DNA from: a virus
Taxonomy: Duplodnaviria > Heunggongvirae > Uroviricota > Caudoviricetes
Reading direction: 5' to 3' (one strand)
IMG/VR virus record: IMGVR_UViG_2551306491_000022
Length of the DNA: 9,690 bases
A model generated the notes under the pieces. The model did not search any database. It was given only the letters and a program-made list of their open reading frames with translations, and had not been told where the DNA came from. Shown here in pieces: positions 310 through 3,080 of the stretch. The translations under genes were made by a program, and so were the position numbers. Each line of letters opens with the position of its first letter. The stretch's first letter is position 1.

Positions 310-540
310 ACAAGCTCAGATTTTTTGTAAAGAATCTGTCACGCTAAAAGATGTCGAACAAAAATTAACCACAATCATCATCTTTTTTGCATCAACCACA
401 TTAAAAACAACAGGTTACACACATGATGATGATGACGATAAAATCACAAAAATGCGCTTTTTTCCGCGCCGCCCGCCCCGTGTTCAGGCCCACCCCACCA
501 GGAGGACCCGCAAAAAAGGCGGCTGGTGCCGCCTTGTTGT
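310..540. repeat. Intergenic cassette A, paralogous to 2850-3080
   Basis: Collinear similarity with cassette B at an offset of about 2540 bp. Shared blocks: TTTTTTGTAA (321-330 vs 2861-2870), GAACAAAAA..AACC (356-370 vs 2896-2910), triplet repeats (ATG)4 vs GTGGTGGTGATGGTG, a GC-rich core AAAAATGCGC..TTTTTCCGCGCC..CCGCCCCGTG..CAGGCC..CCCCACCAGGAG..CAAAAAAG (448-517 vs 2986-3056), then a 6-bp hairpin. Confidence 0.6.
512..533 (-). terminator. Intrinsic terminator after the protease/capsid gene
   Basis: Plus strand reads AAAAAA(512-517) GGCGGC(518-523) TGGT GCCGCC(528-533). On the minus strand this is a 6-bp GC stem with a 4-nt loop followed by UUUUUU, 7 nt downstream of the capsid stop (542..540). 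Confidence 0.6.
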
Positions 541-2429
541 CATAGTGAATCTGTCCCGCCTGATTTGACCATACCGCGATAATCCAGAGCTGCCACACCT
601 GCATCAATACGGACTTTCCAGGCCACGCCGTCAACGATAAAACCTTCCTGCTGTTCAAGGTAAGGCTCGTCATTGCCATCAAGATAAGCCACCTCGATTG
701 TGTCTGTTCCCTGTGCGGAAAGCATGTACCATTGTTTTTCGCTGATATCATCAAGGCGGGGATCGACGATGATATCAAGTAGCTTGTGATACGGGTTAAA
801 GATCCCGCTGTTTTTATCAGCCCCGAAAGGTGCGGTTGAGTTAATCATCTGCAACGCGCGATCTTCCAGTGCTGCCGGAACTAAAAGGAATTTAGGCGCA
901 ATATTCAGCACTTCGCCATTTTTGTCCTTCTGTGTGCGCATCAGGTGACGTGCTGCACTAAGTCCCGGTGTTGTCAGTCCTGCTTCAATCAGGTTGCTGT
1001 GTTTTTTGTCAAACAGCGCTATTCCGTCAGAAAGTTTTACGTTGCCTGTAAGCACCAGATTAACCAGATTTCCCACCGTTCTTGATGCTGCACGGCCCAT
1101 AGCCATTGGCACCGTTGATAACTGATCAAGGTCATCATTGATTATCGCCTGGCGGGTAATGCTGAAAATATTCCCGTAAGTAGCCAGCGCGATGGGTTCA
1201 CCGCGATCGCTGGTGGTAATGTATTTATATTCTGCCCCTTCCGGCACTTTGTTTAACGTTGAGAAGCCATTCATACCAACGCGGCGGGCTTCCCGGAAGT
1301 TTGAAAGGGAACCTTTTTTCGTCCACTGGCGGAATGTTTCGCCGCTGTGCTCCCAGCCTGCAAGCACTGATTTTTCAGCGCCACCAGCAAGGATATCGGT
1401 AAAATCGCTGCTGCTGTGGGTGAATGCCGCGTTTACTATCTGCGAGCGTGTGCTGTAGCTGCCCGTGCTTATACCACGATGGGTTAATGATGCCTGTGCC
1501 ATATCGAAAAGGCTCATCATGGCGTAAGGATTACCGCGTTCGGCCCGTTCGTGACCAAGACGCGCATTAAGCCCCTGACGCATGGCATCGCCGGTTATAT
1601 TGCCGTTATCCGTGTACGCGTAGTAAAGATTTGCGGGGGTGGTTTTGTTTGTTGGCGTTGATTCTTTACCCATAGCGAGTAAAAGGCGTTCGCGTGCATT
1701 CTCAACGCTACATTCTGAATCCGCAAGACAACTTATAGCCAGGTCGTTATATCTTCCGTTGAAGGTGCCAAACAATTCACGGATTCCGTTAAGTCGTTCC
1801 TGTTCGCCACTGCCAGTTTTCTGGCTGATCATGCTTTTAATTTTTTCCGGCATATTTGAAAAATCTCCGATTCGTTTTGATTCAATTCGGGCCATTGCTG
1901 TAATCGCGGGTATAACCTCATCTGCGAAGCCGTTAGCCTTACACTCATTGCCATCCATCCAGGTTTCCGCCTCCATCATTGAGGTGATCTCCTGTTTGCT
2001 CCTGCCCGTTCTTCCGGCGTAGGTTTCCGCCATCGTGTCGCCCAGCTTGTCCATCAGGTCAGCAAAGCGGCGAACGTCGCCCGACACTCCGGCAGTAACA
2101 CCACGGGGGGCATGTATCATCATCATCGCGTTTTCAGGCATAACGATGTGATCGCCACACATGGCAATAAACGAGGCCATAGAAGCCGCCATGCCTTCAA
2201 TGTGTACAATTTTCTTTGCCGGATGATTTTTCAGGGCGTTATAGATAGCCAGCCCTTCAAAGATGTCGCCACCAGGTGAATGGATGCGAAGATGGATTTC
2301 AGACGCATTACCGCACGCGTTGATCTCGTCAGTAAGTGTCGATGCTTTTACACCGTACCCGCCGATCTCGTCATAAATACGCACATAGACAACATCTGCC
2401 ATAGCCTTAATGGAAAACCATGTTTTCAT
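540..2429 (-). CDS. Fusion protein: ClpP-like serine prohead protease (N-terminal ~200 aa) + HK97-type major capsid protein (C-terminal ~400 aa)
   Basis: 629-aa ORF with ATG start and AGGAG Shine-Dalgarno 7 nt upstream. N-terminal motifs line up with ClpP: IHSPGGDIFEGLAIYNAL (ClpP INSPGG..AGLAIYDTM), GMAASMASF (ClpP GQAASMGAF, nucleophile Ser), MIHAP (ClpP MIHQP, catalytic His). The C-terminal part is of the length and composition of a phage major capsid protein. Start codon overlaps the stop of the upstream gene (ATGA). Confidence 0.8.
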   Translation of the reverse strand: MKTWFSIKAMADVVYVRIYDEIGGYGVKASTLTDEINACGNASEIHLRIHSPGGDIFEGLAIYNALKNHPAKKIVHIEGMAASMASFIAMCGDHIVMPENAMMMIHAPRGVTAGVSGDVRRFADLMDKLGDTMAETYAGRTGRSKQEITSMMEAETWMDGNECKANGFADEVIPAITAMARIESKRIGDFSNMPEKIKSMISQKTGSGEQERLNGIRELFGTFNGRYNDLAISCLADSECSVENARERLLLAMGKESTPTNKTTPANLYYAYTDNGNITGDAMRQGLNARLGHERAERGNPYAMMSLFDMAQASLTHRGISTGSYSTRSQIVNAAFTHSSSDFTDILAGGAEKSVLAGWEHSGETFRQWTKKGSLSNFREARRVGMNGFSTLNKVPEGAEYKYITTSDRGEPIALATYGNIFSITRQAIINDDLDQLSTVPMAMGRAASRTVGNLVNLVLTGNVKLSDGIALFDKKHSNLIEAGLTTPGLSAARHLMRTQKDKNGEVLNIAPKFLLVPAALEDRALQMINSTAPFGADKNSGIFNPYHKLLDIIVDPRLDDISEKQWYMLSAQGTDTIEVAYLDGNDEPYLEQQEGFIVDGVAWKVRIDAGVAALDYRGMVKSGGTDSL

Positions 2430-2620
2430 AGCCAGGCTCCTAACGTTGCCTGGTACCAGTATTCAACCGCGCTGCGTGTGATTTGTCCTTTCGTGGGTAC
2501 CGGCATACCCGGGTGATTATCTTTGATGAACTGCTGATAGCGTTCGATCTTCTCCATAGTTCCGGCGTCTATGTGTACCGTGGCACTTTTATCCGGCTTT
2601 CTGGTGTTGTTCTCTGGCAT
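2426..2620 (-). CDS. Small hypothetical protein (64 aa from the SD-supported ATG; ORF extends to 2653), translationally coupled to the protease/capsid gene
   Basis: ATG at 2620..2618 preceded by GGAGG (2632..2628) with about 7-nt spacing. The upstream in-frame ATG pair at 2653/2650 has no Shine-Dalgarno. Its TGA stop overlaps the capsid ATG. Confidence 0.5.
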   Translation of the reverse strand: MPENNTRKPDKSATVHIDAGTMEKIERYQQFIKDNHPGMPVPTKGQITRSAVEYWYQATLGAWL

Positions 2621-2815
2621 AAATCCGCCTCCGTTTTGATTAACGGGCATCATTATTGATCGATAAAAGTAATAGATAAATCATTTTCTACCTGAAAATC
2701 AGATTATGTTTTTTCTGATTATTCTCAGAGAGGCAAAGCCATTGACGCATTTTTGCTATTGAAGCAATATTAAGACTCGTCATCCTGGCGATAAAAACTC
2801 CTTTGTCGTGTAAAA

Positions 2816-2852
2816 GCGCCTCCGGTAACAGCAATCGGGGGCGCTTTTTTTT
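2816..2852 (+). terminator. Strong plus-strand intrinsic terminator in the leader region of the capsid operon (possible end of a small antisense/regulatory RNA)
   Basis: GCGCCTCCG(2816-2824), 11-nt loop, CGGGGGCGC(2836-2844), then TTTTTTTT(2845-2852). The 9-bp stem contains one G-U pair on the plus strand, which would be an A-C mismatch on the minus strand, and the T-run is only on the plus side. Confidence 0.5.
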
Positions 2853-3080
2853 GCGCCTGTTTTTTTGTAAATGTTTTCGGGAACGTTCCAGTGATGAACA
2901 AAAAACAACCTTATTCGACACTAAAAATTTTTATTCCTCAATATATCAATAGCTTATAGTGGTGGTGATGGTGCCATAAAAATCAAAAAATGCGCCTTTT
3001 TCCGCGCCCCTCCGCCCCGTGGACAGGCCACCCCCACCAGGAGTACCTACAAAAAAGCCGGATTGCTCCGGCTTCTGTCA
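2850..3080. repeat. Intergenic cassette B, paralogous to 310-540
   Basis: See cassette A. The hairpin here is GCCGGA-TTGC-TCCGGC versus GGCGGC-TGGT-GCCGCC in A: different sequence, same 6-bp stem and 4-nt loop. B also has a perfect 10-bp palindrome GGAACGTTCC (2880-2889) that A lacks. Confidence 0.6.
3050..3074 (-). terminator. Intrinsic terminator after the SSB-like gene
   Basis: Plus strand AAAAAA(3051-3056) GCCGGA TTGC TCCGGC(3067-3072) TT. On the minus strand this is a stem-loop followed by a U-run, about 15 nt downstream of the SSB stop (3091..3089). Confidence 0.6.

Follow-up and report, generated by a model that had tools for sequence, protein, structure and literature searches.

What is the role of two similar intergenic cassettes that lie behind the capsid gene and behind the SSB gene on a 9,690-nt stretch of DNA assigned to a tailed virus (IMG/VR record IMGVR_UViG_2551306491_000022)? 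This whole stretch is referred to here as the window, and positions are given in it unless another sequence is named. Judged from its gene content, the element to which it belongs is a phage-inducible chromosomal island (PICI) of Escherichia coli, of the EcCICFT073 type and about 10.5 kb long. A preliminary description of the window had regarded the cassettes as a shared cis-regulatory unit, with a structured RNA or a packaging site among the other options. Comparison with phages and related islands points to the last of these: both cassettes are very probably lambda-type cohesive-end (cos) sites, each composed of cosQ, cosN and cosB, in direct orientation and with predicted cuts 2539 bp apart. 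They are called cos A and cos B below, and base pairs within them are numbered from the predicted first base of the cohesive end on the minus strand.

Collinearity of the cassettes and homology to phage cos regions

The collinearity that had been noticed at an offset near 2540 bp was confirmed, positions 315-517 corresponding to 2860-3056 at an offset of 2539 bp. In a pairwise alignment (MAFFT, 290-560 against 2830-3100), all shared motifs, including the triplet blocks, occur in order (Table 1); blastn of one copy against the other gives 79.6% identity over 113 nt (E = 3e-21), and repeat detection lists the pair as one repeat family (D7). The GC-rich core of 72 nt is 85% identical, which equals the earlier estimate by eye, and the A/T-rich arm of 134 nt is 60% identical between the cassettes; the similarity is not confined to A/T runs. 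The spacing of the subsites is equal in cos A and cos B within about 1 bp over 190 bp, and the most conserved part of the cassettes is the cosQ-cosN core and not the gene-proximal end.

The core of cassette A is present in 1051 of the 5426 complete E. coli genomes and, outside such islands, belongs to lambdoid prophages, where it is flanked by the lysis genes on one side and, on the other, by a DUF1441 gene that precedes the large terminase gene. The phage homologues of both cassettes correspond to the Rz-terS intergenic region, upstream of the genes for a DUF1441 small terminase subunit (TerS) and for the large subunit (TerL); they thus occupy the position of lambda cos. The packaging-site option, of secondary rank in the preliminary description, is thus supported by the homology to phage cos regions. 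Regarding cos A, identity to the Rz-terS region of VT1-Sakai and of Shiga toxin (Stx) 2 phages amounts to 88-90.5% over about 200 nt (E 1e-62 to 1e-67); regarding cos B, it amounts to 89.9% over 168 nt for 1720a-02 (E 4e-56) and to 89.2% for CP-1639. Terminase genes adjoin the phage homologues, and sister islands have terS directly after the A-position cos. When the joined ends of lambda are aligned with the cassettes, GGGTCCT and ACG/GGGCGG...CGCGG fall in register; the lambda heptamer at 48473-48479 is taken here to be cosQ.

Anatomy of cosQ, cosN and cosB

For comparison, 80 IMG/VR viral contigs with a DUF1441 TerS were sampled, of which the 72 with an identifiable cos and a full-length terS were used. 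In both cassettes a heptamer lies at bp -31 to -25, upstream of the predicted nick. It is exact in cos A, GGGTCCT being found in 72 of the 72 phage contigs, and variant in cos B, whose AGGTACT is also present in cos sites of Rahnella and Morganella phages and in a Moellerella satellite.

Both sites have a G-rich putative cosN of the lambda type, in register with lambda and with EcCICFT073 cos1. The centre of cosN in cos A, GGGCGGGCGGCG, is that of 1720a-02, of 22 of the 72 viral contigs and of 17/17 phage contigs of class II (see below), while cosN of cos B is one base longer than that of cos A, with 2-3 substitutions, and its centre reads GGGCGGGAGGGCG in the sister PICI of strain ST130 and GGGCGGGTCGGCG in that of 2012EL-2448. 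Between ACG and CGCGG there are 10 nt in cos A, 11 in cos B and 12 in lambda, and the cohesive ends are predicted to be 10-12 nt long, a range and not an exact value. Such variation of the cosN centre is seen even within one terminase class of phages and among sister islands, and the length or sequence of the cohesive ends of this cos family seems unusually plastic. A spacing of 10-12 nt between ACG and CGCGG was also noted more widely (GGGCGGGCGG, GGGCGGGCGGG, GGGCGGGTCGG, GGGCGGGAGCGT and others; window 467-478 and 3005-3017, and loci L094-L173). One phage record, mEp460_4F5, starts 5 nt before the predicted nick, an offset that leaves the cut position undecided.

With regard to cosB, each arm carries a triplet block at the position of lambda R3, followed by further conserved blocks (Table 1), and GGTTnnTTTTTGTTC keeps its offset in the two cassettes as well as in both phage classes and in related PICIs. 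Cos A contains an inverted repeat (I21), with arms at 374-389 and 418-433. In cos B, the block GGCACCATCACCACCAC resembles the proposed R3 of EcCICFT073 cos1, GTGACACCACCACCAC, and is directly followed by a perfect match to the IHF core consensus, TATCAATAGCTTA. As WATCAANNNNTTR is matched once in the window against 0.45 times expected by chance, an IHF site at the position of lambda I1 is suggestive only.

Table 1. Coordinates of predicted cos subsites, hairpins and genes in the window. Hairpins were folded on the minus strand in a 41-nt context; a slash stands at the borders of the cosN centre; bp, numbering within the cos site.
Feature	Position	Strand	Remarks
cos A, putative complete cosQ-cosN-cosB site, VT1-Sakai/Stx-phage class	315-517	minus	homology from the T-run on
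cosQ of cos A, GGGTCCT	503-509	minus	bp -31 to -25; same as lambda heptamer (-30 to -24)
cosN of cos A, CACG/GGGCGGGCGGCG/CGG	463-483	minus	predicted first base of cohesive end 478; aligns with lambda ACG/GGGCGGCGACCT/CGCGG
R3-like block TCGTCATCATCATCATG, type R3-I, (CAT)4	422-438	minus	bp +41 to +57; triplet repeat of the preliminary description
Inverted partner GATGATGAT, candidate R2 equivalent	374-382	minus	bp +97 to +105; kept in VT1-Sakai
Distal cosB block of cos A, GGTTAATTTTTGTTC	356-370	minus	conserved
cos B, putative second site, cosB arm of 1720a-02/CP-1639 class	2860-3056	minus	core diverged
cosQ variant of cos B, AGGTACT	3042-3048	minus	bp -31 to -25; 5/7 match to GGGTCCT
cosN of cos B, CACG/GGGCGGAGGGGCG/CGG	3000-3021	minus	predicted first base of cohesive end 3017
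R3-like block GGCACCATCACCACCAC, type R3-II, CACC-type	2959-2975	minus	bp +43 to +59
IHF core consensus TATCAATAGCTTA, suggestive only	2944-2956	plus	bp +62 to +74
Distal cosB block of cos B, GGTTGTTTTTTGTTC	2896-2910	minus	conserved
Last shared element, TTTACAAAAAA	321-331 (cos A); 2861-2871 (cos B)	minus	also in VT1-Sakai
Shared motif TTTTTTGTAA(A)	321-331; 2861-2871		
Shared motif GAACAAAAAnnAACC	356-370; 2896-2910		
Terminator hairpin GGCGGC-ACCA-GCCGCC	518-533	minus	ends protease/capsid gene; -15.1 kcal/mol, z -2.6, then UUUUUU; T-run 512-517
Terminator hairpin GCCGGA-GCAA-TCCGGC	3057-3072	minus	ends SSB operon; -15.8 kcal/mol, z -3.9; T-run 3051-3056
93-aa ORF	1-282	minus	terminal ORF; ATG 280-282, at bp +197 of cos A
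ClpP-protease/major-capsid fusion	540-2429	minus	single capsid gene of island
75-aa ORF	2426-2653	minus	
SSB	3089-3511	minus	
RepA-type helicase (AAA_25/RepA)	3962-5371	minus	
AlpA-like helix-turn-helix (HTH) protein, weak	7746-7952	minus	AlpA match 17.8 bits vs cutoff 21
Integrase	8449-9690	minus	integrase of island
DUF4222 protein		minus	part of island gene set

Several open reading frames (ORFs) were considered over the cassettes. Small plus-strand ORFs (423-545, and one from 2990) were rejected, being in different frames and broken by an indel, and so were 10-codon minus-strand ORFs over the triplet blocks, for which repeats of a terminase site are a simpler explanation and which coincide with blocks kept in phage cos regions. 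A 67-aa hypothetical protein (WP_122993917.1, RefSeq/PGAP) is annotated at about 401-604 of the window on the minus strand (10972-11175 in L008); it extends over the terminator and the core of cos A as well as over the 3' end of the capsid gene, and is probably a spurious ORF call over G-rich cos sequence. About 200 bp (2653-2860), holding a GGCGC-A8-GCGCC hairpin at 2841-2858, separate cos B from the 75-aa ORF, and a promoter of the capsid operon, if any, would fall there and not in cos B.

Two cosB arms and two classes of small terminase

The core of cos A is 96% identical to that of either phage class, and the core of cos B is 85-86% identical to that of any phage. In the cosB arm, cos A is 81% identical to VT1-Sakai and cos B 75% identical to 1720a-02 (about 90% over the first 95 nt), whereas the cross-comparisons, as well as A against B, give 57-61%. 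The TerS proteins of the VT1-Sakai and 1720a-02 classes are identical in their C-terminal part, which is presumably TerL-binding, and differ in the N-terminal ~65 residues. Among the 72 contigs, four TerS wing classes and four types of triplet block correspond one-to-one and with no exceptions (16, 17, 16 and 23 contigs): block R3-I is found only with wing class W-I (16/16) and block R3-II only with W-II (17/17). The wing reads PLAPGSNEKKK in TerS of class I and ISPxGGHESN in that of class II. Cassette A carries block type I, that of the VT1-Sakai class, and cassette B block type II, that of the 1720a-02 class. Helper-type junctions of cosB with terS are present in 402 (class I) and 228 (class II) of the 5426 complete E. 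coli genomes, and strain ST130 carries, together with the island, a class-II prophage with a cosB identical to that of 1720a-02.

Hairpins upstream of cosQ

Each cassette is preceded on the gene strand by a hairpin with a 4-nt loop, with flanking A-U pairs that extend the stem to 8-9 bp and with U6 after the stem. The hairpins lie 7-16 nt after the capsid and SSB stop codons and have the features of intrinsic terminators; they were folded separately, a simple terminator scan having missed them. Their presence and terminator role had been correctly described; the claim of compensatory changes that preserve a cassette structure does not stand, as their sequence follows the upstream gene and not the cassette. 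GCCGGAGCAATCCGGC, the SSB-linked hairpin, is also found behind SSB/PerC in EcCICFT073, with no cos after it, whereas the capsid-linked hairpin has another sequence than the SSB-linked one in all islands; that of the window is also found after the capsid gene in L008, L090 and L092. Since hairpin identity tracks the upstream gene, the two are best regarded, on their sequences, as unrelated operon terminators of the island backbone. The T-run is where homology to phage cos sets in. At the hairpin position, phage homologues have an AT-rich palindrome, ATGATAACCATTATCAT (L004 and L005, about 2975-2995), which resembles a Fur-box consensus. A palindrome, GATGATAATCATTATC, followed by a T-run is also found in lambda at 48440-48465, and a hairpin plus T-run abutting cosQ was universal in the set examined.

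The island and its relatives

All genes in the window lie on the minus strand. The closest complete copies of the element have host genes on both flanks and span about 10.1-10.6 kb. Gene order is shared with EcCICFT073, from the integrase, the weak AlpA-like HTH protein and the DUF4222 protein to the replication gene, SSB, the capsid gene and the same terminal 93-aa ORF; the gene content is thus that of a Gram-negative PICI of this type, without a full set of virion genes. The island has neither terminase genes nor an Rpp gene. At E <= 10, a tblastn search with RppA gave no match to the window or to the complete sister element (RppA of EcCICFT073 itself matches RppC, PDB 6hlk, at 5e-31), and the Rpp-dependent module, in which an rpp gene for a winged-HTH protein of 135-154 aa lies directly downstream of cos, is absent. 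In the absence of an Rpp homologue, the island would therefore need a helper-type cosB. The 93-aa ORF was rejected as a candidate Rpp since no similarity was detected, and it has no PDB or Pfam match; likewise, the idea that Rpp is a derivative of DUF1441 TerS, which would explain the CACC-type block in EcCICFT073 cos1, was rejected after BLASTP gave no similarity.

In the 5426 complete E. coli genomes, the junction of the 93-aa ORF with the cosB of cos A occurs in 143 and that of SSB with cos B in 104. Each of the eight related islands examined has two or more cos sites, which are of different block types: types I and II are combined in the islands of the window, 2012EL-2448, an O157 strain and ST130, and a CAT variant is combined with a GGC/CAG type in two islands at the clpS locus. 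The GB089 island (L002, EcCICFT073-like) has three cos sites, at 972, 1610 and 4050, namely a type-I site after SSB and two with the lambda centre GGGCGGCGACCT, one of these being inverted; the rpp gene beside the lambda-centre sites is fragmentary. The clpS-locus sister islands (L088 and L089; 3371-3856) have a DUF1441 terS of their own, placed after the A-position cos and before the 93-aa ORF. Because this terS starts exactly at +197 from cosN (+202 in VT1-Sakai), which is where the 93-aa ORF starts in the window, terS has been either precisely lost in the window island or precisely gained in the sister islands. In O157 FDAARGOS_293 (L090, 2073-4116), the same type of island adjoins an N-terminally truncated large-terminase gene of a lambdoid prophage, followed by portal and capsid-fusion genes, an arrangement that looks like the helper-embedded PICI configuration of PMC10111431. 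When species-representative genomes were scanned with the capsid fusion protein as query, mostly phages at <= 62% identity and no E. coli were retrieved, and both the cos layout and the cosQ variant were found to occur in other genera.

Proposed packaging by two kinds of helper and competing explanations

While the cos identity of the cassettes can be stated with considerable confidence, what the island gains from two sites is a matter of interpretation. Upon induction of a lambdoid helper prophage, the island would excise and replicate into concatemers. The DUF1441 TerS of the helper would then bind the cosB arm, chiefly the triplet block at about +41 to +59 and probably across an IHF-type bend, and so place the large terminase to nick the G-rich cosN in a staggered manner, with 478 (cos A) and 3017 (cos B) as the predicted first bases of the cohesive ends. 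Packaging would proceed in the direction of the genes until a later cos is cut, for which the cosQ heptamer would be needed. The shared cosQ-cosN core would thus serve the large terminase and the differing cosB arms two small-terminase specificities. That the two sites let helpers of two TerS classes package the same island is a proposal to which we give close to an even chance.

Several points weigh against this proposal. Cutting, the cut positions, the cohesive ends and helper dependence are all deduced from the DNA sequence. The association of wing class with block is suggestive and not a proof: it could reflect linkage alone, because only about 100-150 bp lie between block and terS, in contigs that are phylogenetically related. 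Co-residence of the island with a matching prophage was confirmed in one genome only (ST130). The AGGTACT cosQ of cos B is absent from the 72 E. coli-type phage contigs, the core of cos B reaches no more than 85-86% identity to phage cores, and its cosN centre is not constant from one sister island to another; this could reflect decay or a different role. Because the cosN centres differ in length and sequence, ends made at A and at B would not anneal. In EcCICFT073, which has two functional cos sites (Fillol-Salom et al., 2018; PMC6092414), deletion of cos1 lowered transfer and deletion of both sites abolished it, but lambda and phi80 transferred the island better once cos2 had been deleted, so that carrying a second cos can be costly.

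The strongest competitor of the idea of two kinds of helper is that a single cos is used and that the other, most likely cos B, is a relic of the capture of late genes from a helper, followed by loss of terminase and portal genes. Helper-type phages are arranged as cos, terS, terL, portal and protease/capsid fusion, so that a deletion from terS to portal would leave a cos upstream of the capsid gene, as observed here, and cycles of late-gene capture and loss have been proposed (PMC10111431). The non-canonical cosQ, diverged core, variable cosN centre and mosaic distal arm of cos B would all fit decay, as would the finding that deletion of cos2 did not lower transfer of EcCICFT073, even though both sites of that island supported plasmid transfer (PMC6092414). 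A relic would, however, hardly be expected to keep its subsite spacing within 1 bp of that of cos A over about 190 bp, to be 92-97% (core) and 95-99% (cosB) identical among four islands at no fewer than three chromosomal sites, or to retain its junction with SSB in 104 complete genomes. Moreover, AGGTACT occupies the cosQ position in other enterobacterial phages (Rahnella, Morganella), and the same kind of variation in the cosN centre is seen within functional class-I phages. On balance, a relic is considered rather unlikely, though it has to be taken seriously. Far less probable is a division of labour in which packaging starts at the cos chosen through cosB and ends at the other one, a class-II helper packaging from B to A with about 2.5 kb of terminal redundancy. 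Such a scheme would make sense of a cos A in which the canonical cosQ is combined with GGGCGGGCGGCG, as in 17/17 class-II contigs, and of a cos B with a class-II block and a variant cosQ, and it agrees with lambda, where termination requires cosQ and cosN but not cosB (PMC6739421). It is pure inference, however, for which no precedent was found, and it would generate non-cohesive ends; nor can it be general, the two sites of EcCICFT073 being mutually inverted.

It is highly improbable that, as had been put forward in the preliminary description, the cassettes are instead duplicates of a region that controls transcription of the capsid operon and of the 93-aa ORF, for instance a late promoter dependent on an activator. 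Each cassette does have a terminator on one side and the next gene on the other; only ~35 bp separate cassette A from the start of the 93-aa ORF, so that any dedicated promoter of this ORF would have to be inside the cassette; and TTTACA, a 5/6 match to the -35 hexamer, is common to 326-331 and 2866-2871. Nevertheless, the whole cassette, including TTTACAAAAAA, is homologous to phage cos regions that are read through from a distant late promoter, and conservation peaks in the cosQ-cosN core and not near the genes. Nor did a sigma-70 scan find a gene-strand site inside either cassette, and shuffled sequence gave as many sites in total. If there is a minor promoter within distal cosB, it would be secondary. 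Least probable of all, and hardly to be entertained, is that the GC-rich core is a structured or small RNA ending at the hairpin. In copy A, a weak promoter-like site on the plus strand (416-444, 9/12 matches) lies upstream of the core, and the hairpin could act bidirectionally, but this site is not kept in copy B and the plus-strand hairpin is followed by TTGTTGT, a poor U-run. The core plus hairpin folds with z of -0.5 to -2.6, the predicted folds differ between the copies, and there is an indel in the core; on neither strand was a significant or shared fold of the core found. Rfam gave no hit at the gathering threshold and none inside the cassettes at E <= 1. Outside cos B, a sub-threshold ctRNA_p42d match (2812-2854, plus strand, 24 bits against a 50-bit cutoff) is probably due to chance. 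Neither form of regulatory element is thus borne out, and the reading of both cassettes as cos sites is retained.

Comparison with known cos sites and satellites

The presence of two cos sites on a PICI is a known kind of feature and would not surprise a specialist; what is new here is that the island lacks Rpp, that the sites are direct repeats and that each arm resembles a different phage class. EcCICFT073 belongs to the same island family and also has two cos sites with lambda-like cosQ and cosN and different cosB. Its experimentally validated cos1 shows the same succession of terminator, GGGTCCT, cosN, CACC-type block and gene. Unlike in the window, its cosN has the lambda centre GGGCGGCGACCT, cos1 is followed by rppA and has a cosB that is recognised by a heterodimer of Rpp and TerS (Fillol-Salom et al., 2019; PMC6739421), and cos2 is inverted, between rppA and the 93-aa ORF; in the window the two sites have the same orientation, behind SSB and behind the capsid gene, and each has a cosB close to a natural phage cosB. 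An R3 equivalent at bp 48-65 of EcCICFT073 cos1 has been proposed (Murialdo and Feiss, 2022; PMC9026076), and a literature search for later work on cos1 and cos2 found nothing further.

In comparison with lambda cos, where cosB is composed of R3-I1-R2-R1 (PMC9026076), GGGTCCT about 30 bp left of the nick and the ACG/GGGCGG...CGCGG cosN are shared, and a block resembling a TerS site lies at +41 to +59, where R3 is found in lambda (bp 50-65) and N15 (bp 48-60) (PMC9026076). The block is followed by an A/T-rich or IHF-like segment, the inverted partner in cos A reproduces the lambda order of R3, bend and inverted R2, and in phages the cos likewise lies directly upstream of terS. Differences concern the cosN centre, with 10-11 bp between ACG and CGCGG instead of 12, and the R blocks, which are trinucleotide repeats unrelated to lambda R sites and whose cognate TerS is DUF1441 and not Nu1.

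Regarding the Stx prophages, those of the VT1-Sakai/Sp15 and 1720a-02/CP-1639 types contain direct homologues of A and of B, respectively, that extend from cosQ over most of cosB, and have the same capsid type, a ClpP-protease/major-capsid fusion. They differ in having an AT-rich palindrome before cosQ and terS after cosB, whereas the island has a GC-rich terminator before and the 93-aa ORF or the capsid operon after; the core of cassette B differs from that of all sampled phages. PICI 11capE, also a Gram-negative PICI without Rpp and terS, shares with its helper 50icd a 258-bp, 90%-identical stretch at the helper cos position (PMC10111431), the same relation as that of cassette A to VT1-Sakai-type phages; unlike here, one shared cos-like stretch is reported, the helper is of the lambda Nu1 type and no comparison of cosB classes is made there. 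In Staphylococcus aureus, SaPIbov5 and SaPIbov4 are mentioned as satellites that carry a helper cos instead of a terminase gene, and SaPIbov4 is said to have two putative cos sites (both as cited in PMC6092414); this Gram-positive system is unrelated and has no sequence relationship to the island.

Other features of the window

Three direct copies of TTTTAATGCCCACTTT(TT) at a spacing of 83-85 bp (3777-3963) are found just downstream of the RepA-helicase gene, as read on the gene strand, accompanied by a second repeat, ACGTGGGAAA, at 3816 and 3890, and by an inverted repeat (3887-3911/3926-3950); because of this position, the repeats are taken to be probably the iterons of the replication origin of the island. 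The real start of ORF 3508-3891 is probably Met45, since the PHROG 1231 match covers only residues 45-127. ORF 6301-7791 encodes a 496-aa protein with no Pfam or PHROG match, and contains pairs of direct repeats that are ~80% identical (75 nt at 6679/7357 and 54 nt at 6335/7082) and spaced about 680-750 bp (region 6335-7431), which point to an internal duplication. A 16-bp direct repeat, AAACGTATAACTAAAA, has one copy some 290-300 bp past the 93-aa ORF and the other 73 bp in front of int (1215 and 11795 in L092; 10268 and 20352 in L008). Its copies occupy the same internal positions in islands at different loci (yhjB-yhjD; yejO-tRNA-Pro); they were therefore rejected as att core and are probably arm-type sites of the integrase.

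Implications for island mobilisation

Islands of this kind spread virulence and defence genes within E. coli, also to and from Shiga-toxin-producing strains, the prophages of which are the likely helpers, and it depends on cos recognition by which phages an island can be mobilised. It can tentatively be hypothesized, at somewhat less than even confidence, that the island family combines a common cosQ-cosN with swappable cosB arms as a helper-range device, the block of each arm, (CAT)n, CACC-type or other, being read by the wing and recognition region of one class of DUF1441 TerS. If so, two or three differing arms would let one island use several otherwise incompatible helper prophages. If each arm matches one terminase class, the host range of an island would become predictable from a comparison of its cosB blocks with the TerS classes of resident prophages, and the question of why some islands have two cos sites would become directly testable. 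With regard to annotation, the present case is a warning that conserved intergenic repeats with hairpins in satellites may be packaging sites, and not regulatory RNAs or promoters.

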